This document shows positions 4,364 to 62,623 of a stretch of DNA of 64,000 bases, one piece after another. Made by a program: the position numbers and the translations under genes. Source of the stretch: Malacoraja senta. Lineage: Eukaryota. Location: assembly GCA_038087875.1 (NCBI GenBank), contig CM075992.1, positions 9,364,001 through 9,428,000 of the forward strand, written 5' to 3'. The notes under the pieces are model-generated. The model was not told the origin of the DNA. It did no database searches and saw only the letters and a program-made list of their open reading frames with translations. Position 1 is the stretch's first letter. Every line of letters begins with the position of its first letter.

Positions 4364-6889
4364 CAGTGCCATCCATAGTGTTTGGGACATAGACCCATCA
4401 TTTATTTATTTGCCTCTGTACTCCACAATTTGAGATTTGTAATATTTAAAAAAATCACATGTGCACATTGTCAAATTTTATTAAAGTCTATTTTTATACA
4501 TTTTTGTTTCACCATGTGGAAATTACAGCTTTGTTTATACATAGTTCCCTCCCCCCCCCCCCCCCCCATTTCAGGGCACCATAATGTTTGGGACACATGG
4601 CTTCACAGGTGTTTGTAATTGCTCAGGTCTATTTAATTGCCTCCTTAATGCAGGTATAAGAGAACTCTCAGTCTTTCCATCACCTTTGGAAACTTTTATT
4701 GCTGTTTATCAACATGAGGACCAAAGTTGTGCCAATGAAAGTCAAAGAAGCCATTATAATAATAATAATAATACATTTTATTTATGGGTGCCTTTCAAAA
4801 GTCTCAAGGGCACCGTACAAAGTTTAACATGTAAGTGGAATGAAATAAATATTAAAGACATCACGAGTACACAAATTAAAGCCAGAAATTCAATCCAAAA
4901 ACAAAAATCAAAGACACACTATGGAAGAGAGAGCAGCGGCTGCTAAAGCGCGCCAGCGTCCACTCTCCCCTCAGACCACCATCTTGGACATAGACTAACA
5001 TAGACACTACACATTACACACAAAATCATCCCCCCCACAATGATTACCACTGTGGGGGAAGGCACAATGTCCAGTCCCCAACCCCAGTTCAACCCAAAGT
5101 CAGGCCTATTGAGGCCTCCACAGTTGCCTCTACGGAGGCCCGATGTTCCTGGCCGTTCTCACCGGGTGTTGCCCCAGCGTCGGGAGAGTCCTCGCAGCGG
5201 CTGGGACGGCTGGAATGGCCGGTTTCCTACCGGAATACGTGGCACCAGAAGCCAACAAGGCCGCGCCGATTTGGAGCTCCGAGGCTCCCGATGTTGAAGT
5301 CGGCGCCGCGTCCCGCAGCCCGGAGGTGTTGAGCTCGGCGGTCGCAGCTCCAGCGCGGCGACCCAGGCAAGGCTTCGCCCGCTCTGCGATGGCGCTCCAG
5401 CGCTGTGCCGCCACCGAAGCTGAAGGTGCTGGGCAGTCCCCGCCAGGAAACGCCTGCTGGTAGGCCGCAAGGATGGGTCGGCGGGGCAGCCCGGAGAAAA
5501 AGCTGCCTCACCGACCAGGTAGGGACTTAGAAAATAGTTTCCCCCTTACCCCCCCACATTAAAAGTCAAGATTCCCCCAAAAACAAAGACTAAGAAAAAC
5601 TAAAAAATTAAGTAAAAAGTGAAATTAACGGACGGCTGCTGGTTAGCAGCCGTTCACCAAGATGGCTCCTCTTGAGACTGAAACAAGAATAAAACTGTTA
5701 GAGACATCAGCCAAACCTTAGGCTTACCAAAATCAACTGTTTGGAACATCATTAAGAAGAAAGAGCGCTGGTGAGCTTACTAATCACAAAAGGACTGGCA
5801 GGCCAAGGAAGACCTCCACAGCTGATGACAGAAGAATTCTCTCTATAATAAAGAAAAATGCCCAAACACCTGTCCGACAGATCAGAAACATTCTTCAGGA
5901 GTCAGGTGTGGATTTGTCAATGACCACTGTCTGCAGAAGACTTCATGAACAGAAATACAGAGGCGACATTGCAAGATGCAAACCACTGGTTAGCTGCAAA
6001 AATAGGATGGCTAGGTTACAGTTTGCCAAGAAGTACTTAAAAGAGCAACCACAGTTCTGGAAAAAGGTCTTGTGGACAGAGGAGATGAAGAGTAACTTAT
6101 ATCAGAGTGTTGGCAAGAGCAAAGTATGGAGGAGAGAAGGAACTGCCCAAGATCCAAAGCATACCACCGCATCTGTGAAACACGGTGGTGGGGGTATTAT
6201 GGCCTGGGCATGTATGGCTCACTTATCTTCATTGATGATACAACTGCTGATGGTGGTAGCATAAAGAATTCTGAAGGGTATAGACACATCCTATCTGCTC
6301 AAGTTCAAACAAATGCCTCAAAACTCATTGGCTGGCGGTTCGTTCTACAGCAAGACAATAATCCCAAACATACTGCTAAAGCAACAAAGGAGGTTTTCAA
6401 AGCTAAAAAATGGTAAATTCTTGAGTGGCCAAGTCAATCACCCGATCTGAACCCAACTGAGCATTCCTTTTATATGCTGAAGAGAAAACTGAAGGTTTAG
6501 CCCCAAAACAAGCATAAGTTAAAGATGGCTGCAATACAGGCCTGGCAGAGCATCACCAGAGAAGACACGCAGCAACTGATGGTCCATGAATCGGTCTTCA
6601 AACAGTCATTGCATGCAAAGGATGTGCAGCAAAATATTAAACATGACTACTTTCATTTACATGACATTGCTGTGTCCCAAACATTATGGGTGCCCTGAAA
6701 TAGGGGGACAATGTATGAGCACTCTTGTAAGTTTCTACATGGTGAATCCAAAATGGCCTTTATTAAAATCTGACCGTGCACTTTAACCACATGTGATTTT
6801 TGTTTTTCTATTACAAATATCAAATTGTGGAGTACAAAGGCAAATAAATAAATGATGGGCCTTTGTCCCAAAGATTATGGAGGGCACTG
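4364..6889 (+). mobile_element. Tc1/mariner transposon (IR/DR type), decayed, interrupted by an insertion
   Basis: ~220-bp TIRs CAGTGCC...GGCACTG|TA with internal direct repeats (tgtttgggaca); transposase starts MRTKVVPMKVKEAI at 4714, resumes ~5673 (TVRDISQTLGLPKSTVWNIIKK; VKHGGG; QQDNNPKH; WPSQSPDLNP), frameshifted. Confidence 0.92.
4756..5671 (-). mobile_element. GC-rich non-autonomous retro-element, copy 1 (L2-like tail, (TAT)n end)
   Basis: Splits the Tc1 ORF; shares ordered motifs with 43419-44277, 61744-62623 and 19773-20010. Confidence 0.75.
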
Positions 6890-7066
6890 TAGAATCAATC
6901 AACACTTAGAATGCACATGATTCCTACCCTCTAGCAGGAAGAATTATAATTCAGATGAAAATTAATTGGAATCTGGGTTTATAGTTTGTATTGCTCTCTG
7001 GATGCTGCCTGACCCAATCTTAAGAGCATTAATTTGTTACTAATGTGATTTTATTATTTTCACCAG

Positions 7067-7210
7067 GGTGAATGGAAACCAGCACAGATTGATAATCCAG
7101 ATTACAAAGGAAAATGGATTCATCCTGAAATTGATAATCCAGAGTATACACCAGACTCTGACCTGTACAGTTACAAAGATATTTCTGTGATTGGCCTGGA
7201 TTTGTGGCAG
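7067..7210 (+). CDS. CALR: Calreticulin exon 7
   Basis: ag|GEWKPAQIDNPDYKGKWIHPEIDNPEYTPDSDLYSYKDISVIGLDLWQ|gt; 144 bp. Confidence 0.97.
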
Positions 7211-8144: not shown

Positions 8145-8237
8145 GTTAAATCTGGAACAATATTTGATAACTTCTTGATCACAGATGATGAAAAATATGC
8201 TGAGAAGGTTGGAAAGGACACCTGGGGAAACGCCAAA
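8145..8237 (+). CDS. CALR: Calreticulin exon 8
   Basis: ag|VKSGTIFDNFLITDDEKYAEKVGKDTWGNAK|gtaaga; 93 bp. Confidence 0.96.
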
Positions 8238-15988: not shown

Positions 15989-16020
15989 GATGGGGAGTCT
16001 AGGGTGAGGAAATCTATAAG

Positions 16021-16357: not shown

Positions 16358-17092
16358 AATGGAGAAACTTTCTGCACTTTGGTAGAACTTTGAAACACAG
16401 AATGGGTTAGGAAATGCTGGTTAAGCATATGCTGGAGACATGAGAGGGAGCTGCAGGTCATTGGCATCTACCTGGGCTTAAAGAAGATGCAGAACTGCAG
16501 ATGATGCAATCTTGAACAAATCATAAAATACTAGAGGAACTCAACAGGTCAGGCAGCATCTGTGGAGGAAATGGCTTCTCCCCATGACCTCTGACACCCG
16601 TACTGATCAAGAATCTATCTATCTCTGCCATAAAAATATCCACTACTTGGTCTCCACAGCCTTCTGTGGCAATGAATTCCATTAGGCTGACCACCCTCTG
16701 ACTAAAGAAATTCCTCCTCGTCTTCTTCCTAAAGGAGCGTCCTTTAATTCTGAGGCTATGACCTCTAGTCCTAGACTCTCACTAGTGGAAATATCCTCTC
16801 CACATTCACTCTATCCAAAACTATTTGTCCTCCAGTTTGAATGTGGCCTCACTCTGAAAATGGAGGAGGCCGTGGACAGAAATATCAGTGTGGGAATGGG
16901 ATCCACGGACCCCAGCAGCACTTCCAGGTGAGACAGAGGTACACACGCCCTTCCTCTAATCTCATCTGCATTTTGGTGCTCCAGATGTAGCCTCCGTTAC
17001 AAGCGTAGAGCAGGTGATAGTTTCACCGGATGCTTGCACTCAGTCCACCAAGACCTACTGGATCTTTCAGTTGCTAAAGACTTTATCGCCTA

Positions 17093-18452
17093 TCATGCAT
17101 TGAAGTGGTTTGCATATGACTCAAAGTTTAAGCCAGGGGTGTACGATTCAAAATTCAAAGAATGGGCACAAAAAGGCATAACGGCAATGTATACAGTTTC
17201 AGAAAATGACGAGTTTATGAGCTTCCAAGATTTAAAGTCAAAGTATGCTCGGAAAACAAAGATTTTTTTTAGATACTTGCAATTAAGAGACTACTTTACA
17301 AAAGAGATAAGGCCAGAACTAGATGAAACTTCAAATAATGTGATCAAGGTGTTGTGGATGGATACAAACAGAAGGGATCTCGGGTCATCTCTGCTTTCTA
17401 CCAAGCTCTGGTGGGAAGTGAGGGAGAATCAACGCTCTGCATAAAAACAAAATGGGAAGCAGAATTAAAGATTCAAATAATAGAAGATGGCGGGACTGTC
17501 ATATGAGGAAAGATTGAAAAGACTAGGCTTGTATTCACTGGAGTTTAGAAGGATGAGGGGGAATCTTATAGAAGCATATAAAATTATAAAAGGACTGGAC
17601 AAGGTAGATGCAGGAAAAATGTTCCCAATGTTGGGCGAGTCCAGAACCAGGGGCCACAGTCTTAGAATAAAGGGGAGGTCATTTAAGACTGAGGTGAGAA
17701 AAAACCTTTTCACCCAGAGAGTTGTGAATTTGTGGAATTCCCTGCCACAGAGGGCAGTGGAGGCCAAGTCACTGGATGGATTTAAGAGAGAGTTAGATAT
17801 AGCTCTAGGGGCTAATGGAATCAAGGGATATGGGAGAAGGCAGGCACGGTTATTGATTGGGACGATCAGCCATGAATGGCGGTGCTGGCTCGAAGGCCTA
17901 ATGGCCTCCTCCTGCACCAATTTTCTATGTTTCTATGATAGAAGATACCTATTTGATTAAAGTTTTGCTTGCAGCAAGTAAGAAGGCCATTACCAGGCAG
18001 TGGCTTAATGAAAAAAGCCAAAACAGGAAGAGTGGCTAGAAATTTGTGCGATACATCTTTACTATGGAGAAACGGACATATTTCTTGAAAGTCGAGGAGA
18101 ATTCATTTGAGAAGATCTGGGAAAAATGTACTGTTTATTTGAGCCATGACACCAACTATATAATTGCCGAGCTAGATATGTGAAGACTGTGTTATATAGA
18201 ACTAGATGGTATGTTTGTACGAATATTGAAATATCTCCAGATAACTAATCAATGTGACTTTTTTTAAAATCCGGTAAGTGAACCACACGGTCTTATTCCA
18301 ATTTTTTATTTATTTAATTTGTGTTTTTTGGGGGGTTTCCTATTTATTTATTTTGATTGTTGCTTTTCTTATTTTATTTATGGTGATGATGTTGCACTGT
18401 TTGTATATATCTCTGAAAAATCAATAAAAACGTACGTTTTTAAATAAAAAAT
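17093..18452 (+). mobile_element. L1-clade LINE 3' fragment with internal deletion and nested CR1
   Basis: FKEWAQKGI..FFRYLQLRDY..KWEAEL..LLAASKKAITRQW..MEKRTY..FEKIW; A-rich tail; 16-bp TSD aagactt(t/a)atcgccta at 17077-17092 and 18453-18468. Confidence 0.85.
17489..17937 (+). mobile_element. CR1/HER1 LINE 3' end nested in L1
   Basis: GLSYEERLKRLGLYSLEFRRMRG; TSD atagaagat at 17480-17488 and 17938-17946. Confidence 0.9.
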
Positions 18453-18570
18453 AAGACTTAATCGCCTACTCCCCTTCCTTTTACTATTCCATCATTTTAG
18501 GTAGCACTGCCCCTCCCCCATTCCCCCTCCTGCACCCCACCCAGGTGTGTGCAGCCATTTCTCCTACTAT

Positions 18571-19609
18571 TAGGTATGTTACAAAACTTACCTTCAGTCG
18601 CGCTGTAATTCTGCCACTGGCCGTGTGCGCGATTTTGGCGCCTTTAAGGGGGGCGGGGTTAAAACGCGGGTTTCTCCTCCCTTGTCCTGAATTATATTTC
18701 GTTGGAGTACAAGCATTGGCTGACAAATCGTTCCTAGTGGCGTTTTGTCAATTTTTAATTTTTATTAAATCGTCAATGTCAGCGTTAGAGTAATTTTAAA
18801 AGCAGCTCCTGAAGCGTCAGCGCCGATAACGGGGACGGATTTCACACACGGGACAGGTAAACGAAAGTGGTTTCTTTAAATGTATAAAAGTGCTTCTTAA
18901 GAAGCCTTTAATTCACATTTTTTCATGCGACACGGTGATTTTATTCCCCGAATTAACGGCAGTATTTTTCATGCCAATACGGGGTTAAATTCACCGCAAA
19001 TGAACGTTCCAAAAGATCGCGTTCCAGAAATCCTCACTCACAAGATGTTTTAAATGCCCATTAATTTACAGGTATTAAACATTCAATTCCTTCCATTTGG
19101 CCTGTAAATTCATGAAAATTAGATTTAAAAATTATGTTATATTGTGAATTATTGTGTGAATGTTATTTGGACACTTAGGCTATTTAAAAATGTTAATCTA
19201 TTCTTAAGAAATTGATAGATGTTTAGATCTAGTAATTGAATTTTGTAATTAGCTACAATTAGGTAACTAACTAATTATATGCTTACTTTCATGTCTTCTA
19301 TGTAAGATTGTTTCATATTTGTTTCAGAATGCTTCAATCTATAATAACTGAAAATTTCTTTCAGTTATCTTAATTTTTAAGAAAGTTATGGGCTTTTAAC
19401 TGTCCTCGATCACAGCTTTTGTGTTAAGTCAATGGAAAAGCAATAGGGAACAAGATGCTAATTTCCGAGTATGAAAATGGCCATAACTTCTTTAATACTG
19501 AAGATATGAAAGTGAATTAGGTGTCAAATTAAACTTCTTTTTATGCTTTATCTGATGGGATAAATTGCAGACTTTATTTTTAAAATCTCAAAATTTTGTA
19601 ACATTGCTA
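18571..19609. mobile_element. Non-autonomous DNA transposon (hAT-like TAG termini)
   Basis: Imperfect TIR TAGGTATGTTACAAAA / TTTTGTAACATTGCTA; ctactat duplicated on both flanks; no transposase. Confidence 0.75.
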
Positions 19610-19772
19610 CTACTATCCTTTCCTCTGACTTCACATTTCACTTCTCTCATATGATACCCTTTTATCTTTTTCATCTATAACATTTGTTCACCCATGTGCC
19701 AATCAAAAACCATTTCTCCGGACTTTAGTGGTGTAACAAATTAGGATGGATCTTGGAACATGGAACGGTACA

Positions 19773-20010
19773 TTCAAGACATTCAAGATTCAAGATTTCC
19801 TTTATTGTCATTCAGACCTTTCGGTCTGAACGAAATTGTGATGCCTGCAGTCATACACAGAACCAATAATAACAAAACAGACAATAAACACAAATTAAAC
19901 ATCCACCACAGTGAGTTCACCAAGCACATCCTCACTGTGATGGAGGCAAAGTCTTAGTCTCCGTCTCTTCCCTCCTTGTTCTCCCTCTGCGCTGAGGCGA
20001 TCGATCGATA
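19773..20010 (-). mobile_element. GC-rich retro-element family, 5'-truncated copy 4 (Rex1-like tail)
   Basis: (TCAAGAT)n end, tttattgtca tail, family hairpin at 19902-19944. Confidence 0.6.
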
Positions 20011-20020
20011 CTACATGTTA

Positions 20021-20295
20021 AGGGCAGCGCAGTGGCACAGCGGTAGAGTTGCTGCCTTACAGTGCCCGGGACCTGGGTTCGATCATGATTGTGGGTGCTG
20101 TCTGTACGGAGTTTGTACGTTCTCCTTGTGACCTGCGAGGGTTTCCTACCACATCCCAAAGAAGAGCGGGTTTGTAGGCTAATTGGCTTCTGTAGATTGT
20201 CCGTCGTGTGTAGGTTAGAACTAGTATACAGGTAATCGCAGGTGTGCGGACTAGGTGGCCAGAAGGGCCTGTTACCATGCTATCTCTAAACTAAA
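20021..20295 (+). mobile_element. HE1-like V-SINE
   Basis: gtggcacagcggtagagttgctgccttacag..gggttcgatc head; gaagggcctgtt tail. Confidence 0.85.
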
Positions 20296-21426
20296 GTACA
20301 GCATAAAAACACCCACTCAGTCCACAATGTTTTGCTAAACATGATGCCATGACCATCACGTATCTGCCTGCACGTGATCCTTGTCCCTCATTCCCTGTGT
20401 ATCTATGTGCCTACTCAAATGTCTCTGAAGTGCCTCTATTGTATTTGCCTCCACCACCACCCCTGGCAGCACATTCCAGGCACCCACCACTCTCCGTATA
20501 ATACACTTGCTCATCTCACTTTAAAGCTATGCCCTCTAGTATTTGACAAGGTTATGACTGTCTGCTGTATCTATGCGTCTCATAATTTTATCAAGTCTCC
20601 CCTCAACCCCCGGCCTTCCAGAGAAAACAGTTTTAAGTCCAAGGTAGACACAAACAGCTGGGGTAACTCAGCGGGATAGGCAACATCTCTGGAGAGAAGG
20701 AATGGGTGACAATTTGGGTCAAGACCCTTCTTCAGACCAACTTTCCCTCGAGGTGAAACCCTTCAAGCCAGGCAGCATTCTGGTAAACTATATTTCCATT
20801 TTGGGGAAAAAAGGTTCTGACTCTACCCTTTCTGTGCCTCTCAGTTTATATACCTGACGCTATTATTTCTCCTAACCCATTCGGAATGCTAACCATCTAT
20901 ATGTTTGAGTAGTAACACAAACAAGCAGTTACTGCAAGGAGTAAGGTCTTCAGCAAAGATATACAACGGTGCAGGAGGAGGCCATTCGGCATTTCGAGCC
21001 AGCACCACCATATATTGTGATCATGGCTGATCATCCACAATCAGTACCCCGCTCCTGCCTTCTCCCCATATCCCTGACTCCGCTATTTTAAGAGCTCTAT
21101 TTAACTCTCTCTTGAAAGCATCCAGAGAATAAGCGAGTTCGGTATTCCAACTGTGCATGCCCAGGTCATAGGTCACAAGCGAAAAATACTCTTGGCAGCT
21201 GTTCTGCGGCATGGACACAGACTTGCGCCTCGTCCGCAGCCAGGATCGATCCCGGGTCTCCAGCACCGCAATCGCTGCCGAACTGCCACTGGACCATCCC
21301 CGTCCCATCCCGAGTGCCCTACCAGCCCTGCCTGGACTTACGGAAACGATGGCCCAGGCTTATAGCCAGCGCGGAGAAGCAGTGCTAACTCCACAGCTCC
21401 GGGCTGTTGCGTCAGTCCAGACAGGG

Positions 21427-21626
21427 NNNNNNNNNNNNNNNNNNNNNNNNNNNNNNNNNNNNNNNNNNNNNNNNNNNNNNNNNNNNNNNNNNNNNNNNNN
21501 NNNNNNNNNNNNNNNNNNNNNNNNNNNNNNNNNNNNNNNNNNNNNNNNNNNNNNNNNNNNNNNNNNNNNNNNNNNNNNNNNNNNNNNNNNNNNNNNNNNN
21601 NNNNNNNNNNNNNNNNNNNNNNNNNN
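21427..21626. other. Assembly gap (200 N)
   Basis: Run of 200 N. Confidence 1.
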
Positions 21627-22549: not shown

Positions 22550-23000
22550 TATTATTGTTTTTATGTGTATTTTTGTGTGTGTGTGCAATATATAAATTTG
22601 TATATATATATATATATATAGATGTATAAATATAATTGTTCAATCTGGGACCTATGTGTCTGTGTGTGTAAATACACATGCATTGTTCTATCTGGGATAT
22701 GTATATATATAAATCATTGTTCTATCTGGGACATATGTGTGTGTGTGTGTGTGTATATATTTATTTAATTATATATATGCTATCTGGGACATATGTGTGT
22801 GCATATATAGAGATATGTATTTAATTGTTCTAACTGGGACATATGTAAACATACATATAATTGTTATATCTGGGACATGTCTGTGTGTATATATATATAT
22901 ATTTCATTATTCCATCTGGGAGATATGTGTGGGTGTATATTTATATATTTGTCATTGTTCTGTCTGGGACATATGACAATAAAACACTTAACTCTTGACT
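22550..23000 (+). repeat. Minisatellite of ~8 units (attgttctatctgggacatatg) separated by (TA)n/(TG)n, derived from a Rex1 3' tail
   Basis: Last unit ends cattgttctgtctgggacatatgacaataaa, matching the Rex1 tail at 40508-40538. Confidence 0.8.
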
Positions 23001-23820: not shown

Positions 23821-24022
23821 CACGTGTGACTCAGCGGGACAGGTAGCATCAAAGATCTTTGGGCAGCATCTCTGGAGAGAAGGAATGGTCGGCGTTTCGA
23901 GTCGAGACCCTTCTGCAGACTGAGAGTCAGGGGAGAGGGAGACACAGAGATAAGGAAGTGAAAGGTGTGAAAACAAAACATCAGAGGAGATGCAGCTCAA
24001 GGAAAAAGTAGAATAGTACATT

Positions 24023-24701
24023 CTTCAATTCTTGTCAATTCTTCCCTTCCCTCCCATACCACCACCTCCCCTGGTACTTTCCCTTGCAACCGCAAGAGAT
24101 GCAACACTTGTCCCTTCACCTCCCCTCTCTGCTCCATTCAAGGACCCAAGCAGTCGTTCCAGGTGCGACAGAGGTTCACCTGCATCTCCTCCAACCTCAT
24201 CTATTGCATTCGCTGCTCTAGATGCCAGCTGATCTACATCGGTGAGACCAAGCAGAGGCTTGGCGATCGTTTCGCCGAACACCTCCGGTCGGTCCGCAAT
24301 AACCAACCTGAACTCCCGGTGGCTCAGCACTTCAACTCCCCCTCCCATTCCGTATCTGACCTCTCTGTCCTGGGTCTCCTCCATGGCCACAGCGAGCAAC
24401 ACCGTAAATTGGAGGAAATGCACCTCATATTCCGCTTGGGCAGTCTACATCCTGGGGGCTTGAACATTGAATTCTCCCAATTCTGCTAGCCCTTGCTGTC
24501 CCCTCCCCTTCATCAGCCATCTGGTTGTCTCCTCCCCTCCCCCAGCCCTCGGGCTCCTCCTCCGCCTTTTTTCCTTTTTTCCTTTCTTCTCCCCACCCCC
24601 TATCAGTCTGAAGAAGGGTTTCGGCCCAAAACGTTACCTATTTCCTTCGCTCCATAGATGCTGCTGCACCCGCTGAGTTTCTCCAGCATTTTTGTGTACC
24701 T
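24023..24701 (+). mobile_element. Penelope-like element 3' part (GIY-YIG endonuclease plus terminal repeat)
   Basis: NLIYCIRCSRCQLIYIGETKQRLGDRFAEH..VAQHF..GLN; 14-bp TSD tagaatagtacatt at 24009-24022 and 24702-24715; inserted into an antisense Penelope remnant. Confidence 0.9.
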
Positions 24702-29237: not shown

Positions 29238-31215
29238 AGTCCCTTCAGTCCACCATGACCATCAAGTACCTGGCTGTATTCGTTTATCAGCTCTTGGTTT
29301 ATAGCTTTCAATTGCTTATCTAGATAAGTTGCAAATGTGGGAGTACCTGCTTCCACACCCATGTAAGCAGCGAGGTCTAGTTTCCATGTGCTATTTGGGT
29401 GAAAACATTCCTCTAAACCTCTTATGATGCACATATACCCTCTTGTTTTAGATGCCATTTCCTTGGAGAAATGTTTCCTACCATCTACCATTTCTATATC
29501 TCTCATAATTTTGCATTTTCTGTCAGATCACCTCTCAGCCTCCATTGGTCCAAGGAAAACAAGGCCAGTTTCTCTTCATAAATGAAATGCTTCTTCCTGG
29601 AGAATCTCTGCACCCTCTCCGCCACATACACATTTTTTTGTATTTTGGGGTGACCAAAATTGCACCGAGTTCTTAAACTGTGAACAGGGCTGTGGAGGCC
29701 AAGTCAATGGATATTTTTAAGGCAGAGATTGATAGATTGTTGATTAGTACGGGTGTCAGGGGTTATGGGGAGAATGGGGTTAGGAGGGAGAGATAGATCA
29801 GCCATGATTGAATGGTGAAGTAGACTTGATGGGCCGAATGGCCGAATGAAAAAGTTACTTATATAACAACTAAACAGGTTCGCTTCTTAATAGTCAAGTC
29901 AAGTCACATTTATTTATATAGCACATTTAAAAAACAACTCTCGTTGGCCAAAGTGCTTTACATTTGTTATAAGAATGAGTCTCTTTTTGAACTTGGCTCA
30001 AAAGATTTATAACAACCAACACATTTTATCATTCGAGTATAGCTCCGCTCCCCATTCATGGCAGTTTCTTAAAGGGACACACCATAACCTGTCTGTTCAT
30101 TTGCATTTCAAAGGACAAACTGTTCTTAAAGGGACACACACACCTTTGCTCATTGCTTCAAATTTCACACATTCCACATACAAAAAACATTGTTTTACAA
30201 GCAGTACATATACAAAAAAACATTGTTTTACCAGCAATATATAATATTTCATCTTCAAAGACGTCTCTTTGTAATTTACTTTCCCTTTTTCTGACAAGAC
30301 TTCTGTTTACCAGAATCCTGGTTACCTAACCCTAATTGGACATTGATCCAGATCGTGATTAGTCAGACTCCCCATGACTTTTCAGTCTCCCTACCCCATC
30401 CTCATTTCTCCACCGAATTTTCCTTCATCCCCAATTTTTTTACTGGTCCTATCACATATGAACTTGTGAACCACATACATTGATTTTTTGTTTATTATAT
30501 ATTATCTATGTGTACTGTGTTTACAGGCCTGTCATGCTGTTGCTTGTAAGAATTCCATTGTCTGTTGTCAGAACATAAGGGAAGGTTCGCTACAGGGATG
30601 GTTTTTCTAGAGACATTTGTTTAACATAATTATAGACAGAAAACTATTTTTTGATAAAGGTTAGTTTTTGATTACTTTAGCAGCAGCAAAGGTCATGCTG
30701 TTCGTGGCGCAGGAGAGAAAGGTCAGTGTGGGAAAGGGAGGGGGAGTCAAAGTGTTTAGCAACTGGGAGATCAGGTAGGTTTAGGCGGACTGGGCGAAGG
30801 TGTTCAGTGAATACAGCGAGGTGTTCCCTACGTTCTACACTGTTTAATTCATTGTGTCGTCAACTCCATTTACCCCATTGTAGGGATATCTACAGTGATA
30901 ACTAGTCATCTTTGAAAGGATCAATACTTGAAGGTATATTCGGGTTAATATTATCATTGACATTTGGAGATATTATTAATATCTTGGCCGTGCTGTATGG
31001 TCAGCAATTTAGTAGCCTGTTGGATAATTGGTTCCAAATGTGTGGTGTAATTTGCTACACTCTGGGGATATTAATAATCCACATAAACTGTGGCCATGAG
31101 AAGATCAGGTACCAAGAACTATCTGTTGACACATAAATGGGATAACTAAATGTACTAAAGTATAAATGCTTGACCCAATGAGAGCATTTATATATCATTC
31201 CATAAAACTTGTGGA

Positions 31216-32214
31216 GTGGACACTATCCCCTACTGCCAATTCCTCCGTCTACGCCGCATCTGCACCCAGGATGAGATGTTCCAAACCAGGGCATCGGAGA
31301 TGTCCTCATTCTTTAGGGAACGGGGGTTCCCTTCTTCGACTATAGATGAGCCTCTCACCAGGGTCTCCTCCACATCCCGTAGCTCCGCTCTCACTCCCCA
31401 TCACCCAACTCGTAACAAGGACATAGTCCCCCTTGTCCTCACCTTCCACCCTACCAGCTGTCACATACAACAGAAAATCCTCCGACATTTTCGCCACCTC
31501 CAACGGGATCCCACCACTGGCCACATCTTCCCATCTCCACCCCTTTCGGCTTTCCGCAGAGACCGCTCCCTCCGTAACTCCTTGGTCAGTTCCTCCCAAA
31601 CCACCCACTCCCTGGTACTTTCCGTTGTAACCGCAAGAAATGCTACACTTGTCGCTTTACCTCCCCCCTCGACTCCATCCAAGGACCCAAGCAGTCTTTC
31701 CAGGTGAGGCAGAGGTTCACCTGCACCTCCTCCAACCTCATCTATTACATCCGCTGCTCTAGGTGTCAACTTCTCTACATCGGTGTGACCAAGCACAGGC
31801 TTGGCGATCACTTCGCCCAACACCTCCGCACAGTTCGCATTAACCAACCTGATCTCCCAGTGGCTCAGCACTTCAACTCCCCCTCCCATTCCGAATCCGA
31901 CCTTTCTGTCCTGGGCCACCTCCATGGCCAGAGTGAGTCCCACCGCAAATTTGAGGAGCAGCACCTCATATTTCGCTTGGGTAGTTTACATCCCAGCGGT
32001 ATGAACATTAACTTCTGCAATTTCATGTAGTCCCTGCTTTCTCCTCCTTCCCCTCCCCAACTCTCCCACTGCCTTTTGTCTCCACCTCTTCCTTTCTTCT
32101 TCCCGCCCCCCCCCACATCAGTCTGAAGAAGGGTCTCGACCTGAAACGTAACCTATTCCTCGCTCCATAGATGCTGCCTCACCTGCTGAGTTTCTCAAGC
32201 ATTTTTGTCTACCT
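31216..32214 (+). mobile_element. Penelope-like element (RT thumb, GIY-YIG, terminal repeat), frameshifted
   Basis: IPYCQFLRLRRIC..RGFP..PLVLTFHP..AFRRDRSLRNSLV; NLIYYIRCSRCQLLYIG; hammerhead-like motif ~32123-32150. Confidence 0.9.
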
Positions 32215-32489: not shown

Positions 32490-33210
32490 TGTCAAGTCAA
32501 GTCACATTTATTTCTATAGCACATTTAAAAAACAACTCTCGTTGACCAAAGTGATTTACATTTGTTATAAGAATAGTATACACAAGCAAAATACATAAAT
32601 ATATACAAATAGCCCTCGCTCAGAGGACGTCAGGAAAGGCTTGGGAGAACAGATACATTTTTAGTCTAGACTTAAAGGAGTCAATGGAGGGGGCAGTTCT
32701 GATGGGAAGAGGGATGCTGTTCCACAGTCTAGGAGCTGCAACTGCAAAGGCGCGGTCGCCCCTGAGCTTATGCCTAGACCGCGGGACATTCAGCAACCCC
32801 AAGTCGGCCGATCTGAGGGACCTGGAGGTGGTGTAGTGGGTGAGAAGACTTTAATGTAGGTGGGTGCAAGCCCATTGAGGGCTTTGTAGACAAAGAGGAG
32901 GGTCTTGATATTTATTCGGAACCGCACAGGGAGCCAGTGGAGACAGGCCAGGATCGGGGTGATGTGGTCCCTTTTTCGGGTGCCCGTCAGGAGTCTCGCT
33001 GCGACTTTTTGGACCAGTTGCAGGCGGGACAGGGAAGATTGGCTGATGCCAGTGTAAAGGGAGTTGCAGTAATCTAGGCGGGAGGAGATAAATGTGTGGA
33101 TGATCTTTTCGAGGTCATCAAACTGGAGGAATTGTTTTATTTTAGCTATCATCCGAAGCTGAAAGAAGCTAGCTTTTACCATGGCATTGACTTGTTTGTC
33201 AAATTTCACT
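32490..33210 (-). mobile_element. L2-clade LINE 3' fragment
   Basis: SRLDYCNSL..LQLVQ..AARLL..HITPIL..LHWLPV..GDRAFAVAAPRLWN; (TTGAC)n tail; short tail copy also at 29893-29975. Confidence 0.9.
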
Positions 33211-34960: not shown

Positions 34961-36359
34961 GTGTGCAATCATTTCTGATTAAAGCAATAGTTCCATTTTC
35001 TATGTGGGTACAGCATCTTCTGGGAGCCTTGGCTAATGCAAAGTTATTATTTCCCAGTCAATGATTTCCAACATGAATGGAGGAGTTTCCCTTTCATATT
35101 ACCTTATTTTAACATGCTTTTGCATTTGGGCAGTACTTTTCCCATGGTGGAAATGTTATGCCACCATTTTTTGATTAGTCCCAATCAAAACCCTCCAAAC
35201 CCGGTGATCCCAGTCTGAAGAAGGGTCTCGACCTGTCCAGAGATGCTGCCTGTCCCGCTGAGTTACTCCAGCTTTTTGTGTCGATCCCAGAGTGACCCTG
35301 GGTAAGATGTACTACCATTTCCTATCCTGACAGTACTGCTCCCAGCCCAAAGTGCTTATAATATAGACATGGAGTCATACAGCACAGAAACAGGCCCTTT
35401 GGCCCAACTTGCCTATGCCGACCAAGCTGCCCTATTTACACTGGCCCACCTGCCTGCATTGGCCCTTATCTCTCCAAACCTTTCCTATCTATGTACCTGT
35501 CCAAATGTCTTTTCAATGTTGTTATAGTATCTGCCTCAACTATTTCCTCTGGCAGCTCATTCTACACCCTGCTATAGTTCTGCTATAAATGCTTGCTTCC
35601 ATAACACAAATTGATATAATGCGAATGATAAATGAAAGAACACTATTTTCATTATGTGAGCTGAATTGGTTATAATGTGATTTTGATTGGGGACTTGAGA
35701 ACCACTTGAAAGTTACTTTGGAAATGGACAGCATAAAAAAAAATTGTCTTGGATTTAAACAGGTAAAACGTTTTGATGCAACATCCCCCCAGGAATCAGA
35801 TACCATTGTCTATAAGGACACAGCTGCTACTTTAGCCAGGGGTGGCCATTGAAATTGACAAGCAATTGCTTCTGTTGACATGTATGCACCAATGCTGTAT
35901 TACCAATGTAACATACAACCTTTAATGTTTTTATCTTGCAGTAACAGAAATAAGCTTTGGGAAAGACCTTCATTTTTGAAATCCTGCAGGAAAAATAGCT
36001 CTGTTATTCCAAGAAACTCACTCGCCCCTAATCCTAATTTTCCCACTGTCTTTACAATGCAATCTTCTATAACATGAGGTTTCTTAGGAATGCCACTATG
36101 GCATTATAGCAGAACTACCAGCATCCAGTGTGGGGAATGCACTGTGCAGATATAGGTCACGTGAAGTTATTGAAATATTGCCGTGATATCTGAGATGTTC
36201 CTCAATATATTTCTGATAATTTACTGGTTTGAAACTTTATTTAATGTGTCCTTTGCATTGCATATGTGTAGGTAGAGTTTGTGTTTTCTTTCATTTTCCT
36301 CAAAATACTACTCATCATAGGCTAATGTTAAATAAAATGTTTTCATTCTATATATCATA

Positions 36360-39727: not shown

Positions 39728-40057
39728 TTGCCTGGAGTTATTCAGCATGTCAGGCATCTCTGGAGAACATGAATAGGCAATGTTTTGGATCAGAACTCTT
39801 CTTCAGACTGATTGTAGTAGGGGGGGGGGGGAGGGGGGGAGAAAGGTGGGAAATTGGTGGGGTTGGGGTTGGGACAAAGCCTGGCAAGTGATATGCAATT
39901 TCAAGCGAGGGTGGTTTTGTTGGCAGATGGATGGACAAAGGCTAGAGATGAAAAGGAGACGTGTTCGATAAGACGGAAATGTGAAACCAGAGGGAGGATA
40001 TGGATGGATCGGGTGGGGGAGAGGGTAAAGGGACTAGGAAAGTGAGATAAATGGATG

Positions 40058-40556
40058 GACGTGGCTTGGTTCGGCAACTTGAGTGCCCAGGAGCGGAAAA
40101 GACTACAAAAAGTGGTATACACTGCCCAGTCCATCATCGGCTCTGACCTCCCTATCATCGAGGGGATCTATCACAGTCGCTGCCTCAAAAAGACTGGCAA
40201 AATCATCAAGGACCCACACCATCCTGGCCACACACTCATCTCCCCGCTACCTTCAGGTAGAAGGTACAGGAGCCTGAAGACTGCAACGTCCAGGTTCAGG
40301 AATAGCTACTTCCCCACAGCCATCAGGCTATTAAACTCAACATACAAAACTCTGAACATTCATAGCCCATTACCTGTTTATTTGCACTTTATCAGTTTTA
40401 TATATTCATGTGTGTATATATTTATACAATGGTATATGGACACACTGATCTGTTCTGTATTATTCATGCCTACTATATTCTGTTGTGCTGAAGCAAAGCA
40501 AGAATGTCATTGTCCTATCTGGGACACATGACAATAAACTCTCTTGAATCTTGAAT
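40058..40556 (+). mobile_element. Rex1/Babar LINE 3' end
   Basis: WFGN..LQKVV.TAQSIIG..IIKDPHHPGH..LPSGRRYRSL..RFRNSYFPTAIRLLN; (cttgaat)n tail. Confidence 0.9.
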
Positions 40557-42884: not shown

Positions 42885-44361
42885 CAGTAAACCCTCAATA
42901 TAACGGAGCACAGGGGGGGGGGGGGGGGAATGGTGTCCGTTATTGCTGACTGTCCGCTATAACCAAGTAAGGGTTTACTTCAACCACCTAGTGGACATTC
43001 CGTGAAACGAGTTGTTTTCAAATACAAAGTTCTTTTTAACAGCTAAAAATTTATCTTTGTTACTGCAAGCTAAAAATATTAAAGGCTGTTTGTTCCATTG
43101 TTTAATAGTTAAGTGTCGATCCAAGCGATCGGTTGTCAATTTCAATGCATTGTCAATTTCAGTGTCTTGTCAATTTCAAAGCATTGCCGATTTCAATGCC
43201 TTGTCAATTTCAATGCATTGTCAGTTTCAATGCATTGTTAATTGACAATGCTTTGAAATTGACGGCACTGAAATTGACAATGCATTGAAATTGACAACCG
43301 ATCGCTTGGATTGACACTTAACTATTAAACAAAGTAACAAACAGCCTTTAATATTTTTAATGCCTTGTCAGTTTCAATGCTTTGTCAGTTTCAAAGCATT
43401 GCCAATTTAAATGCATGGCAAGTTCAAGTTCAAGTTCAAGCTACATTTATTGTCACATGCACCAATTGGTACAGTGAGATTTGAGTTACCTTACAGCCAT
43501 ACGAATAAAAAGAACACAATACACGATAGAATTTAACATGAACATCCCCATACAACGGAATCAATGTTTCCCACTGTGAGGGAAGGCAACAAAGTTAAAG
43601 TTCCGTCATCTTCCTCTTTGTTCACCCGTGGTCAGGGCCTTTGAGCCCTCCGCAGTCGCTGCTACGGTGGCCCGATGTTCAGACCCTCTCGCCGGGATGA
43701 TCGGAGCTCCAGCGTCGGAACGGAAGAACACACTCAGCGGCTTGTAGTTTCTGAATCGGCCACTTCTTACTGGAGGCCACGGCTCCCGAAGTCCACAGGC
43801 CGAGCTGGGCGGAGATTCAACACTGGCAACCCTCGGCAAAAGATCCCAGGACTTTGGGATGTGAGAGTCAGCGCCGCCCGCAGCTAGAAGCTCCGCAAAC
43901 CACAGCTCCACGGTGTTAATCACCAGGCCCAACACGCCGGAGCTCCAACACAGGCGATCCCCGATAAGGCATCGTCCCACTCCGCGATGGAATTCAGTGC
44001 TGCGCCGCTGCTGAAGCTCTGGCCGGTCTCCGGCAGGAAAGGCCGCGCCAATCCAGTTGGTAGGCCGTGAGGGGGGCGAAGATGCGACTCGGAGAAAAGA
44101 CGCATCCTCGACCAGGAAGTGACAGGAAACGGTTTCCCCTCTTCCCCCCCCCCCCCCACATAAAAAAGACAAGAAACCTCTAAAAACATACTTTTAGACA
44201 GACTAAAAATAACAAAAAGGGTGAAAGGACGGACAGCTGCTGGCGAGGCTGCCACGCTCGATGGCGTCACCCGATGGTATGGCGCAGTATACAGTTCTGA
44301 AAGAGACAGTCCGCTATAACCAAAATCTGTTGTTAAGAGGTCTGTAATAGAGGGTTTGCTG
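42885..44361. mobile_element. Tc1/pogo(Tigger)-type MITE with nested insertion
   Basis: TA|CAGTAAACCCTC...GAGGGTTTGCTG|TA; subterminal gtccgctataacc repeats. Confidence 0.8.
43419..44277 (-). mobile_element. GC-rich retro-element family, copy 2 (Rex1-like tail, (TTGAAC)n)
   Basis: Shared motifs and hairpin (43545-43584) with copies 1 and 3. Confidence 0.75.
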
Positions 44362-47169: not shown

Positions 47170-48302
47170 TACTGGTCCATGCTGCTCACGTCCGACGTCT
47201 CCAGCACCCTTCTTGTCCCGTTGTCCAACAAACCTTTGGGCTGGTTCCTGATCCTGCCGACCGAAGAGCCTTTGGGCAGATTATGAGACTTTGGGCTGGT
47301 TAGAAAGAGGATTGGTGATATATTTCCAAGTTAGGACAAGAGGGGACTCTGATGTTGATGCAGCTACTGCTCTTGTCCTTGATGATCAAGAAACTGCAGA
47401 TGCTGGAATCTTAAACAATGCACAAAGTGCTGGAGGAACTCAGCGAGTCAGTTAGCACCTGTGGAGGGAATGATCAAAAGACGTTTCAGGGTCGGGACCC
47501 TTCTTCAGACTAAATCTGTAAAAGGACCCAACCCAAAACATTACCTGCCCATTCCCACCACAGATGCTGCCTGACCCTCATCTATTGTCTTTCTGCTGAC
47601 TGGTTAGCACACAACAAAAGCTTTTCACTGTACCTCGGTACACGTGACATTAAACTAAACTCAACTCAACGAAACTCAAACGGCTTCCTCCAGCACTTTG
47701 TGGTTTGCTCATGGTAGCCTATGCAAATAACTGCATTGCATTACATAGAAGGTACACATTCATAAGTGATAGGAGCAGAATTAGGCCATTCGGCCCATTG
47801 GGTCTACTCCGCCATTCAATCACGGCTGATCTTCCCCCTCAACTCCATTCTCCTGCCTTCTCCCCATAACTACCCGTACTAATCAAGAACCAAACAATTC
47901 CAACAGATTTGTCAGGCAAGATCTCCCCTTCACAAAACCATTCTGACTCTGGCCTATTAGTCCCAGAGTACCATCTACAAAATATTAAATGGGATTAGTG
48001 TAGGGTTAGCATAAATAGATGTTGCTGAATGGTGCGGACTTGGTGGGCTAAAGGGCCAGTATTTGTGCTGTATGACTCTGACCCATTTACATGTTTACTG
48101 ATAGTATAGTGATGGTACGTAAGCTGACACTATTAAGTTAATGAGGAGCGAGAGTAAATGATGTATTTATTGCCATATCATTTCATATAAACGGTACATT
48201 ATTTATATTAAATGGTGTGTTGTAAAATTACAATGTAAAATTTAAAAAAGTATTTTAATCTTGTTCGCAGAGGCACATTGAACCTGTTTTCTTTGTTTCT
48301 AG

Positions 48303-54122: not shown

Positions 54123-55143
54123 ATGGCACCAAAGCCGGTCTTAATCCTCGCTAATTCAGACTGGGATTAAGTGTTTCAACAGACAATATGCAACTTCTAG
54201 GGAGCTGCTCTGCTCTGATCTTTTCACTAATAACATAAAACTAATTCAGTAAAGAGGTGGTGAAATTCCCGTAGAGGATCTTCAAATAACATTGAGTTGA
54301 GTTTAGTTTATTCTAACGGTACGGTGAAAAGATTTTGTTGCATGCTAACCAGCGGAAAGACAATACATGATTACAATCAAGCCATCCACAGTATACAGAA
54401 AAGAGTGGAGCGATTGCAATGCATGATCGCAGATCCACTTCTGCGACTAGCACACAGAGTCGCCTGCCTTGGGCGCCATCTTGGAAGATTTTTCCAAGAA
54501 AACAAGAAGCACTCGATGCCCTAGTGCGTTTAAAGGTGGATAGATCCCTAGGACCAGGACTAGAATTATCCCAAACTCCTGCAGGAGGCAAGGGAAGAGA
54601 TTGCTTGGGTTCTGGTTAAGGGTTTTAAATCTTCACTGGACATAAATGAGATACCGAATGACTGGGGGACAGCAAACATGGTCCCCCTTTTCAAGAACGA
54701 CAGCAAGGTAAAGCCTCATAATCATAGACCTATGAGCCTAACGTCAGTGGTCGGGAAGATGCTGGGAAAATGCTGAGGGAAGGGATTAATGACCACTTGG
54801 AAAGGTAAGGACTAACCAGATGCAGTTAGGTATCGGTTTTGGTTTATTGTCATGGTACAGTGAAAAGCTTTGTTTTGCATGCGAACCATACCGATCAGGT
54901 AATACCAAAGATAGACACAAAGTGCTGGAGTAACTCAGACTAAAGAAGAGTTCTGACCCGAAACGTCACCCATCCTTTTTCTCCAGAGATGTTGCCTGAC
55001 ACACTGAGCTACACCAGTAGTTTGTGTCTATCTTTGGTATTACCTGATCGGTATGGTTCGCATGCAAAACAAAGCTTTTCATTGTACCATGACAATGAAC
55101 CTAAACCTTTGGTATAAACCAGCATCTGCAGTTCCTTTCTACA

Positions 55144-59346: not shown

Positions 59347-60480
59347 GTAGAAGTGGAAATGGTTGAGTGTTTCAAGTTTCTTGGTGTAAATATTACCAAC
59401 AATTTATCGTGGGCCAACCACATTTATGCGACATCAGGAAGGTACACCAACGCCTCTACTTCCTGAGGAGATTAGGGAAATTCTGCATGTCTCCAATGAC
59501 TCTTACAAGCTTCTACACTGGGCCTGTACTCGTTGGAGTTTAAAAGAATGAGGGGGGACCTCATTGAAACGTACCGACTAGTGAAAGGCTTGGATAGAGT
59601 GGATGTGGAGAGGATGTTTCCACTAGTGGAAGAGTCTCGAACTAGAGGTCACAGCCTCAGAATTAAAGTATGTTCCTTTAGGAAGGAGATGAGGAGGAAT
59701 TTCTTTAGCCAGAGGGTGGCGAATCTGTGGAATTTTTCACGACAGACGACTGTGGAGGCCATCATGGAAAATTTATAGACAGAGATAGATAGATTTTTGA
59801 TTAGTACAGATTCAGGGGTTATGGGGAGAAGGCAGGAGAATGGAGTTCGGAGGGAGAGATAGATCAGCCATGAATGAATGGCAGAGTAGACTTGATGGGC
59901 TGAATGGCCTAATTCTGCTCCTATCACTTATGACTTTATGACCGACAGGTGCACCAAATGTTGCATCACAGCTTGGTTTGGGAACAGTTCTACTCAAGAC
60001 CGCAAGAAATTCCATTGAACTGTAGATGTAGCCCAGTCTATCACACAGACCAGACTTCCCACCATTGACTCCATCTACACAATTCTGCCTTGGAAAAGAA
60101 GCCCAAATAATGAAAGACTTGTCCCACTCCAGTCATTCCTTCTTCCCCTAGCTCTCGTCCAGCAGAAAATACAGAAGCTTGAAAGCAGGCACCATCAAAC
60201 TCAGGAACAGATTTTTCCCCTCTATTATTAAGCATCTGAACAGTCGCTCCCTTGTCCGATTCACCTCTACCCCATTGCGGACATTGGACTTTGTCTGTGG
60301 AACTGATGCGCTACAATGCTGAGAACTATATTCTGCACTCTGTCTCTTCCCCTTTGATCTATCTATGGAACGAGTTTGACTTGATTGCATTTATTTAGAG
60401 CGTTATCTGAATTGTTTTTTTGTAGCACGCAAAACAAAGCTTTGCACCGTACCTCGGTATATGTGACGATAATAAACCCA
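59347..60480 (+). mobile_element. Rex1 LINE fragment interrupted by CR1 3' end (59519-59937)
   Basis: FKFLGVNI..LSWANH..QRLYFLRRL; resumes AWFGNS. Confidence 0.8.
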
Positions 60481-60496
60481 AACGCAAAATGATTAT

Positions 60497-60912
60497 GAGT
60501 TGAATATCCTCATCAGGAAGGCTGGCTCCGTCCTGGGGGCGGAGTTGGAGTTGGATTCATGGGAGGTTGGTCTTGGAGGGGAGGATGCTCCTCAAACTAC
60601 CGAGCATCATGGACAATACAGCTCACCCCCTCCATGACCCACTGGTGAACCTGAGGAGCACCTTCAGCAACAGACTGGTTCCACCAAGATGCAGCACAGA
60701 ACGCCACAGGAGATCCTTCTTCCCTGTGGCTATCAAACTGTACAACTCCTCCCCCTTCTGTCGTGGGGTAGACTGAGACTGACTCCCCCCCCCTCCCGCC
60801 CCCAATCTTTGCACATCCTCAATCCCTTTTCCACTCGTCACTTTAATTTCATGTTCCCTGTATCTTGCTGTGTTTTTATGACTGTTGGCAGATCAATTTC
60901 CCTCCTGGGATA
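60497..60912 (+). mobile_element. Rex1-clade LINE 3' end (second subfamily)
   Basis: IMDNTAHPLH..NRLVPPRCSTERHRRSFFPVAIKLYNS; tttccctcctgggataa tail. Confidence 0.8.
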
Positions 60913-61743
60913 AGGCAAGGCAAGGCAAGGCAAATTTATTTGTATAGCACCATTCGTGCAAACAGCAATTCAAGGTGCTTTACAGGAAAGAAAAAATAAA
61001 ATAGTCAATAATTAAAAATTGCAAAATAAGCAATACGACAAATGTATGAATAATAAAACAACGTCAATGAAGCAATAAAACAATTTTAAAAAGCACATAA
61101 AAGGGTTAAAATTAGACAGTTAAGATTACCTGCATGTCAGGTTATGGAAAAGCTCTAGTAAACAACAGTGTTTTAAGGCCTGATTTAAATGCGCTTACAG
61201 TCTGCACACCTCAGGTGTTCAGGGAGCTTGTTCCACAGGTGTGGAGCATCAAAACCCAATGCTGCTTCAGCCTTTTTAGTTCTGCCCCTGGGAACACAGA
61301 GTAAACCTGTCCCTGAAGACCTGAGGAGTCTAGGTGCCTCATATACAACAAGTAGGTCAGAGATGTATTTTGGACCTAGACCATTCAGTGCCTTGTAGGT
61401 CAGTAACAGAATTTTAAAATCTATCCTCTTACACACAGGGAGCCAGTGCAAAGATTTAAGGACAGGTGTAATGTGGTCCATTTTCTTGGTGTTGGTCAAG
61501 ACTCTGGCAGCGGCATTTTGGATAAGCTGCAGTTGTTTAATTGATTTTTTATTGAGACCTGTAAAGATGCCATTACAATAATCTAACCTACTAAAAATAT
61601 ATGCATGAACAAGTTTTTCAGTGTCTTCTTTGGACAGAAATCCCTTGATTCTTGCAATATTTTTTAGATGGTAATAGGCAGATCTGGTAATGGTCTTTAT
61701 ATGGCTGTTAAAATTCAAATTCGAGTCCATAACTACACCAAGA
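60913..61743 (-). mobile_element. L2-clade LINE 3' fragment
   Basis: SRLDYCNG..LQLIQNAAARVLT..HITPVL.SLHWLPV; (TTGCC)n tail. Confidence 0.9.
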
Positions 61744-62623
61744 TAAATAGTAAAGTAAAGTAAGTTTATTTATATAGCACTTTTCAATCAAATCACTGAA
61801 GCCAAAGTGCTTTACAGAGAGAATTAACCATATAAATGAAAAATAAAAGAGGTAGAAAAAAAAAGACAGGACACACTATTAGAGATTCAACACGAACATC
61901 CCCCCCCACAGCAGAGTCGACACTCTCCACTGTGAGGGAAGGGCACCAAAATGTCCAGTCCTCCTCCTCCTAGTCCACCCGAGGTCGGGGCCAGTTTGAG
62001 GCCACCGCAGCCGTTTGCCGCAACGGCAGCCCGATGATTATAGGCCCACCCGCCGGGAAGCTGGAACACCGGCATCGGGTGGAAAGTCCTCAGCGGCCTT
62101 GAAGTGTCTGGAGCGGCCGCTCCTTCCCCGGAGACTGCGGCGCCCATGGACTTCAGGCCGCGCCGGTTGGAGCTTCGACTCCGCGGTGTTTTTGATCCAG
62201 CGCCGCCCGCCCGCGGCGGGGTGCCCTCAAACCGCAGACCGCAGACCGCAGACCACAGACCACAGACCGCAGCTGCTCGATGTTGGTGGTCGGCGGTCAT
62301 AGCACACCGGAGCGGCGACCCGGCAAGGCATCGCCCGCTCCTTGTTGGTGTCCCAGCGCTGTGCCGCCGAAGCTGTGGTCCCCGGCAGGAACGCCGCTCC
62401 AGCCCGATGGAAGGCAGCATGGGGAGATCGGAGATGCGATTTGGAGGAAAACCGCATCTCCGACCAGGTAGGACTGGGGTTAAAACAGTTCCCCCCACCC
62501 CACCCCCCATATAGAAAGAATAGACCTCCAAATAAAAGTTATAGACAATAAAAAGGGTTAGAGGACGGACTGCAGGCAGGCGCCCATACAAACGGCGCCC
62601 ACTCCTGCACATCCGTCATCTTG
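61744..62623 (-). mobile_element. GC-rich retro-element family, copy 3 (L2-like tail)
   Basis: Tail tttatttatatagcac..aaagtgctttaca; hairpin 61899-61940; internal (cagacc(a/g))n. Confidence 0.75.

Follow-up and report, generated by a model that had tools for sequence, protein, structure and literature searches.

In the CORE, V and Deu superfamilies of short interspersed elements (SINEs; HE1 and SacSINE1 in elasmobranchs), a common body carries tails from different long interspersed elements (LINEs), and the CORE-SINEs have UnaL2 and RSg-1 as partners (PMC3747384, PMC5499810, PMC5786205; here and below, published work is cited from the portions of each paper that were available). SINE-like parasites with heads not derived from a small RNA are known from few groups, namely the LP-SINEs of molluscs, two SINEs of birds, and Sadhu of Arabidopsis, and their polymerase has been only inferred or left untested (PMC4758252, PMC4844689, PMC2848041). 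Here we examine a 64,000-nt stretch of the genome of the skate Malacoraja senta (GCA_038087875.1, contig CM075992.1, positions 9,364,001 to 9,428,000; the window), in which four insertions (copies 1–4) had been read from sequence alone as a modular parasite that switched between the LINE clades L2 and Rex1. That proposal holds for homologous bodies, two classes of tail, and insertion as one unit, while evidence of high copy number was obtained only for the Rex1-tailed form. The insertions probably represent a superfamily of non-autonomous, non-coding SINE-like retroelements with LINE-like 5′ ends that has switched partner LINEs.

Body homology and the insertion unit

Copies 1–3 align pairwise at 62–65% identity over 648–776 columns (blastn, E 2e-31 to 3e-63). 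Their local scores are 91.5–137, whereas shuffling (200 shuffles each) gives maxima of 30–36, and the ungapped body identity is 64–67%. A lack of significant pairwise homology between the bodies had been set beforehand as grounds for abandoning the family; both blastn and shuffling showed significant homology for copies 1–3. The motifs on which the sequence-only reading was based are present in the copies in the order it gave. Its claim of an ordered body shared by all four insertions stands for copies 1–3 and applies weakly to copy 4, which matches the three-copy profile at E 0.01 (nhmmer) and copy 2 at 44/51 identities, with a score (34.5) just above the shuffle maximum (29). Copy 4 also retains the 3′ hairpin, and is a probable, weakly related member of the family. 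In an nhmmer search of the window, the profile of copies 1–3 detected no additional full copy. Five loci matching the motif patterns in other collections (four in viral_contigs, one in metagenome_contigs) were rejected as motif-only, chance matches with bit scores of 0.1–6.2, and pattern scans of genome_contigs and plasmids, along with two of three scans of viral_contigs, returned 0 loci.

Body and tail appear to insert as one unit, as had been proposed. Repeats of 5, 6, and 5 bp, each marginal, flank copies 2, 3, and 4, respectively, and copy 1 splits a Tc1 transposon, interrupting the first codons of its transposase gene; the Tc1 frame resumes at 5673, with PF01498 downstream. The four sites are those originally recognized, with their boundaries shifted to the limits given in Table 1. 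The possibility that copy 3 is the 5′ part of the adjoining L2 was excluded, since the L2 truncation point lies outside the flanking repeat of copy 3.

Read 5′ to 3′ on the element (minus) strand, the order is a head of 40–60 nt, a G-run, a hairpin (H1), a CpG-rich core, a second hairpin (H3), a T-rich spacer, the tail stem-loop, and a microsatellite. Between the two conserved hairpins the body is CpG-rich over about 500 nt, and its core has a GC content of 60–67% and a CpG observed/expected ratio of 0.84–0.92, compared with 0.47 for the window. The heads share a GC patch followed by a T-rich stretch (z 4.7–10.9) and differ at their extreme start. Copy 3 starts one letter off CAAGATGGCG, which is the start of skate L2 and Rex1 elements and presumably a YY1 site. 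None of the heads aligns at length with any named LINE. The skate L2-1, L2-3, Rex1-1, Rex1-2, and Rex1-12 consensuses all begin with CAAGATGGCG, which occurs 38 times in the available consensus table; among the 11 occurrences shown, ten are Rex1 starts and one is an L2 start (PMC13343379). A 13-mer common to the head of copy 3 and LeuEri_Rex1-15 was dropped as a single short match.

In H1, 34/36 cells are paired and 3/12 pairs have changed on both sides among the three sequences. The H3 hairpin of copy 2 is decayed, and its energy moves from −14.4 to −23.1 kcal/mol once family-majority letters are substituted. For all seven body hairpins the element strand gives the better fold, which G-U pairing favors anyway. 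A global consensus fold was set aside because its covariation term was positive (+0.72). Of the 128-nt unit duplicated within the body of copy 2, copy 1 contains one detectable occurrence (E 0.008) and copy 3 one weak occurrence (E 0.76).

A gene on the plus strand, which we take to be RAD23-like, has translated exons at 23281 and about 44416, placing copy 2, and probably copy 3, antisense in its introns. Opposite the element strand, a splice-donor-like CAG/GTAGG (the slash marks the putative junction) is found at 5511–5522 (+) in copy 1 and 62460–62471 (+) in copy 3. At the equivalent 44108–44119 (+) the GT has been lost in copy 2 and is retained in one contig of the copy-2 type. Within the RAD23 introns this motif points in the host sense direction.

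Tails, the two-part module and abundance

Tails were compared, with microsatellites removed, against three L2 tails and seven Rex1-type tails from the window. The tail of copy 3 matches all three L2 tails and 0/7 Rex1-type tails. That of copy 2 matches six of the seven Rex1-type tails (z 4.5–13.5; z 1.7 for the seventh), among them two that follow pieces of Rex1 open reading frame (ORF; z 5.0 and 6.5), whereas its scores to L2 tails do not exceed z 2.8. A false-looking score of z 6.7 between the tail of copy 2 and that of one L2 (L2b), obtained with microsatellites included, fell to 2.8 once these were removed. For copies 2 and 3 the shared LINE tail, with its stem-loop and tandem end, is clear. 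Copies 1 and 4 may likewise carry LINE tails, judged by fold and motif. The end of copy 1 folds like the tail of copy 3 and the L2 at 60930–60990 (the L2 at 32505–32570 folds otherwise), and copy 4 scores z 0.1–4.0 against Rex1 tails, mostly through the terminal motif, and folds the same hairpin with a 4-nt loop. The original pairing of copies 1 and 3 as L2-tailed and copies 2 and 4 as Rex1-tailed is firm for one member of each pair; copy 1 is of the L2 type by fold and 5′ motif, not by sequence, and copy 4 is weakly of the Rex1 type. Copies 2 and 3 are alike through H3 to about 43503 and 61855, respectively, and clade-specific after that, which makes the last 85–105 nt the swapped piece.

The L2-type and Rex1-type reference ORFs are 28% alike, and LHWLP occurs in 117/120 matches of the L2 query and 0/11 of the Rex1 query. 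The L2 and Rex1 labels of the reference fragments rest on motifs that we take to mark these clades; we likewise take RSg-1 to belong to the Rex1 clade. In support of the labels, motifs legible in the L2- and Rex1-labelled consensuses of the available table (PMC13343379) occur in 6/120 and 1/11 of the matches, respectively.

Absent from the earlier description of copy 1 was an extra module of 230 nt with its own LINE-type 5′ end. This module opens with a second CAAGATGG start at 4987 and includes an 11-mer that, in a comparison covering the first 400 nt of each of 1003 CR1-group consensuses, occurs in six, each of them an L2 with the motif no more than about 30 nt from its 5′ end (PMC13343379, available portion). 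By eye, 32/34 aligned letters agree with PolSen_L2-16 from that table. The second start, the L2-only 11-mer, and the fold together indicate that copy 1 consists of the body plus a two-part L2, and its inner module reads as the 5′ and 3′ ends of one LINE clade joined together. This suggests L2 as a further source clade of two-part derivatives.

The copy-2 type is abundant. Sixteen of 23 listed sequencing runs, from seven coded organisms and seven studies, contain 0.45–0.60 of the words of copy 2; one may be the source of the window itself, run X17 is flagged as probably DNA, and there is no RNA run among the 23 listed. In each of three large runs 17,032–20,330 contigs were placed on copy 2 at 80% likeness, as were 1,022 in a small run. 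All 30 bins of copy 2 are covered, depth drops 16–30-fold beyond about 44265 in all four runs, and contigs at 43436–43638 and 43463–43703 bridge tail and body. The contig abundance, the sharp depth drop, and the bridging contigs show that the Rex1-tailed family is present in high copy number and that its 5′ end is fixed. Contig depth is not equivalent to copy number, and at the 3′ end it is raised by other repeats with Rex1 tails; the higher 3′ depth on copy 2 fits 5′ truncation and was not used as evidence.

Table 1 Features of the four insertions and of reference elements in the window (positions are those of the window)
Feature	Position	Strand	Remarks
Copy 1	4757..5672	-	Head, body, 3′ hairpin, two-part L2 module, (TTA)n end; interrupts start of Tc1 transposase gene
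Copy 2	43420..44278	-	Full-length, Rex1-tailed, (CTTGAA)n end, within RAD23 intron
Copy 3	61751..62623	-	Full-length, L2-tailed, begins CAAGATGACG
Copy 4	19774..20011	-	5′-truncated distant relative; 3′ body hairpin and Rex1-like tail hairpin; weak
Flanking repeat, copy 2, 5 bp	43415-19 / 44279-83		Null probability 0.04-0.06
Flanking repeat, copy 3, 6 bp	61745-50 / 62624-29		Null probability 0.02-0.03
Flanking repeat, copy 4, 5 bp	19769-73 / 20012-16		Null probability 0.07-0.08
Tc1 transposon split by copy 1	4363-6890		Inverted repeats 4363-4597 / 6671-6890, 220-235 bp, 74% alike
H1 body hairpin, copy 1	5476..5516	-	Directly after TACCTG motif; fold z -4.2
H1 body hairpin, copy 2	44077..44113	-	Fold z -4.9
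H1 body hairpin, copy 3	62426..62465	-	Fold z -7.8
H3 3′ body hairpin, copy 1	5030..5060	-	First motif of the sequence-only reading; z -3.6
H3 3′ body hairpin, copy 2	43545..43584	-	Decayed; z -1.6
H3 3′ body hairpin, copy 3	61900..61941	-	z -4.5
H3 3′ body hairpin, copy 4	19902..19944	-	z -4.8
Internal duplication, 128-nt period, copy 2 body	43796..44023	-	68% identity
Two-part L2 module, copy 1	4757..4987	-	CAAGATGG start, L2-type 5′ motif 4949-4965, T-rich spacer, 3′ stem-loop 4781-4821
Rex1-type tail hairpin, copy 2	43453..43477	-	4-nt loop; directly before TGACAATAAA
L2-type tail stem-loop, copy 3	61771..61816	-	z 10.4-12.4 to 3/3 L2 tails
5′-truncated L2, separate insertion, reference tail	60915..61744	-	Adjoins copy 3; 78% to P0012
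5′-truncated L2, reference tail	32491..33209	-	
5′-truncated Rex1, reference tail	40046..40556	+	59% to P0123

Several other elements of the window carry related tails. A non-coding piece at 4140–4363 (+), possibly a second Rex1-dependent family, has a tail closely resembling that of copy 2 (z 13.5) and a purine-rich body with no profile match. An element of about 185 nt at 54300–54484 (−), with the start CCAAGATGGCG and a decayed Rex1-type tail at its end, looks like a two-part Rex1 derivative, and 3′ parts resembling it lie at 47578–47669 and 60423–60481. The Rex1-type tail hairpin motif also recurs in several tandem repeats at 22700–22990 (+), directly 5′ of the RAD23 promoter island. Among named sequences, those closest to the Rex1 fragment at 40046–40375 come from Leucoraja (91%) and Rhinoraja (83%).

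Among the remaining features, copy 2 is inserted into or beside a palindromic, miniature inverted-repeat transposable element (MITE)-like sequence at 43071–43420 with 17-bp repeats, a relative of which lies at 35847–35953. A tRNA-headed SINE at 20020–20298 (+), presumably of the HE1 type, directly adjoins copy 4 and has about ten relatives. Penelope-like fragments at 23971–24489 (−) and 31174–32030 (+), with what we take to be a GIY-YIG motif, have many palindromic derivatives of 100–300 bp spread through the window. An assembly gap of 200 N occupies 21427–21626.

Proposed transcription and partner switching, with rival explanations

Two further claims, that the element has no tRNA head and that the copies share no ORF, were upheld. 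ARAGORN found 0 tRNA genes, all Rfam matches in the copies were far below gathering scores, and strict patterns for the A and B boxes of RNA polymerase III (Pol III) were absent from all four copies; these patterns are judged strict because a control tRNA-SINE yielded an A box and no B box. Each full copy contains seven to eight T-runs of at least four, several within the first 200 nt and starting 63–77 nt from the 5′ end in copies 1–3. Runs of this length would stop Pol III. Pfam assigned 0 families to the seven body frames, these frames had no match in two large protein searches or the ESM Atlas, and no trace of ORF2 was found in the copies beyond one match at E 9.5. An origin in rRNA, U1, 7SK or telomerase RNA was dropped given the negative Rfam result, and an 11-mer found as well in the 5′ untranslated regions (UTRs) of two dogfish CR1 elements was dropped as being at chance level.

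We hypothesize that an internal promoter, most likely one used by RNA polymerase II (Pol II), drives transcription of the elements, because of the CpG-island body, the internal T-runs, and the LINE-like 5′ motifs. The ORF2 protein of the partner would bind the tail stem-loop, as for zebrafish L2, and the RNA would be inserted by target-primed reverse transcription. Binding by the ORF2 proteins of zebrafish L2 is, in the available text, strict for their own 3′ stem-loop (PMC4176376), and with such binding a new tail means a new driver. An element might acquire a new tail through template switching, or when transcription reads through into a piece of LINE lying downstream. Copy 1 resembles a capture of this kind, its body being followed by a complete two-part L2 with both 5′ and 3′ ends. 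That the four copies bear four different tails, on bodies 64–67% alike, suggests that the switches are old and probably repeated. Rays are among the groups with the highest Rex1 coverage.

Several results weigh against this interpretation. The flanking repeats are each marginal, the limits were partly chosen by eye, and copy 1 has no repeat. The first 25–40 nt differ among copies, with the CAAGATGG motif inverted in copy 1 and absent in copy 2. The H1 covariation derives from three sequences only and was equalled by 19/500 shuffles, and the body overall is not unusually structured for its composition (median window z about 0). Copy 4 is weakly related to the others, as described above, and the tail of copy 1 has no sequence match to the L2 tails of the window (z ≤1.2; 2.4 to copy 3). 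Copies 1 and 3 are single examples, the evidence on copy number covering the copy-2 type only, and none of the sources compared revealed where the body came from.

One rival possibility, which we consider unlikely, is that the family depends on Rex1 only and that copies 1 and 3 are one-off chimeras, each formed when an L2 reverse transcriptase switched templates onto body RNA in the course of one insertion. Multicopy evidence does exist for the Rex1-tailed copy-2 type only, the L2 tails of copies 1 and 3 differ (z 2.4), and template switching is an accepted route of module exchange in the available text of PMC4758252. However, two of the three full copies in 64 kb are L2-tailed, which would be improbable for rare accidents. 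The bodies of copies 1 and 3 are also 33–36% diverged from copy 2, far beyond the copy-2 family with its likeness of 80% or more, indicating that they are separate lineages. As a weak hint of other tails, three contigs of the small run carry another sequence tailward of H3, at 43552.

We give slightly less weight again to a LINE origin, with the body as a long 5′ UTR of autonomous LINEs that the L2 and Rex1 lineages share through promoter recruitment, and the elements as short internally deleted elements (SIDEs); in that case the parasite itself would have swapped nothing. The heads resemble L2 and Rex1 5′ ends, the inner module of copy 1 is itself such a derivative, and the 128-nt duplication of copy 2 recalls the 100–500-bp repeat units near the 5′ UTR of some ORF1-less CR1-group LINEs (PMC13343379). 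Within the available part of that consensus table, though, the first 400 nt of five skate L2 and 19 skate Rex1 consensuses are unlike the body by eye, and most skate consensuses with an intact start enter coding sequence within 400 nt. Exact body motifs had either no match or scattered, unrelated matches in the first 400 nt of the 1003 consensuses. The trace of ORF2 in the copies is limited to the single E 9.5 match.

It is very improbable that the elements are an ordinary Pol III superfamily of the Deu, V, CORE or snRNA-headed kind with a head too decayed to be recognized. TACCTG before H1 resembles what we take to be the U1 5′ end, and a 14-nt stretch there resembles by eye a presumably Deu-like stretch of shark Zenon 5′ ends, but the tRNA, Rfam, and A/B-box searches were negative, the 5′ limit is sharp, T-runs fall within 70 nt of it, and in as much sequence as was compared chance alone should yield several resemblances of 14 nt. 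The Deu-like 14-mer was accordingly dropped as being at chance level. In a separate observation, Zenon LINE consensuses of sharks and rays in the available portion of the table look by eye as if they begin with a tRNA-type head joined to what is presumably a Deu-like domain, which would give these LINEs a SINE-like 5′ end (PMC13343379 supplementary table 2, rows 158, 853, 908, 909; HypSab_Zenon-1).

A bolder version of the partner-switching interpretation is tentative, and we think it less likely to be right than wrong. It would make the elements an undescribed, abundant vertebrate Pol II superfamily defined by a structured CpG-island body, with repeated capture of L2 and Rex1 tails (in one case of an entire two-part L2), whose hairpins might promote template switching or ORF2 loading and whose conserved antisense splice-donor-like motif might render each copy a mobile antisense promoter-exon within genes of the host.

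Comparison with described elements

No description of the skate family was found in the literature searched, with Dfam, Repbase, Repbase Reports, and subscription journals outside its scope; the available portions of PMC7245038, PMC2746220, PMC12361510, and bioRxiv 10.1101/2025.06.08.657570 hold nothing on it. The statement that this is no named family thus stands for that literature, while the concept is not new, LINE-headed SINEs and tail exchange being already in print. The family is real and probably undescribed, and so abundant a repeat probably has an unclassified entry in Dfam or Repbase. Tail exchange is established and no principle is overturned. A high-copy vertebrate case with natural L2- and Rex1-tailed forms would nonetheless provide a direct test of whether a tail of 50–60 nt alone sets the partner across LINE clades, and would make L2 one more of the few clades that yield two-part derivatives. 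It would also imply that skate genes contain many spliceable insertions resembling CpG islands, which repeat libraries probably include without classifying them.

The CORE, V and Deu elements differ from the skate element, with which they share the common body and exchanged tails, in being shorter (SacSINE1 is 463 bp) and in having heads of tRNA or 5S type that carry Pol III boxes, such heads not having been found in the skate element (PMC3747384, PMC5499810, PMC5786205). Among bipartite LINEs and SIDEs (Bov-A, RIME, and R2 SIDEs), the last 230 nt of copy 1 fit Kojima's model, with L2 5′ and 3′ ends behind an unrelated head; in the available text, however, the sources are RTE, Ingi, Vingi, and R2 only, without L2, and the skate body was traced to no LINE (Kojima 2018, PMC5786205). 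Persaeus is reported to be a bipartite non-autonomous element derived from CR1 (PMC6740152). BuceSINE and ManaSINE2 of birds similarly join a GC-rich, non-RNA head to a bipartite LINE tail, but have one partner, AviRTE, and no cross-clade tail switch in the text available (Suh et al. 2016, PMC4844689). Sadhu of Arabidopsis resembles the skate element in being about 900 bp, non-coding, and without Pol III boxes, in its divergent subfamilies, and in a 5′ motif followed by a pyrimidine patch; it differs in its poly(A) ends, duplications of 7–18 bp, low copy number, and absence of a LINE-derived structured tail from the available description (PMC2848041).

The closest known elements are the LP-SINEs of molluscs (Matetovici et al. 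2016, PMC4758252). Like the skate element they are non-coding, exchange modules, and end in 3′ tandem repeats after a hexamer resembling a poly(A) signal. They also have flanking repeats, which are marginal in the skate element, and a LINE-like rather than a small-RNA head, as the skate element probably does; Pol II has been proposed for them, untested in the available text. Their head of ~70 bp is common with Nimb/RTE LINEs, whereas the skate heads vary and resemble L2 and Rex1 starts, and the skate element differs further in its long, CpG-rich, structured body, its vertebrate host, and its tails from two clades.

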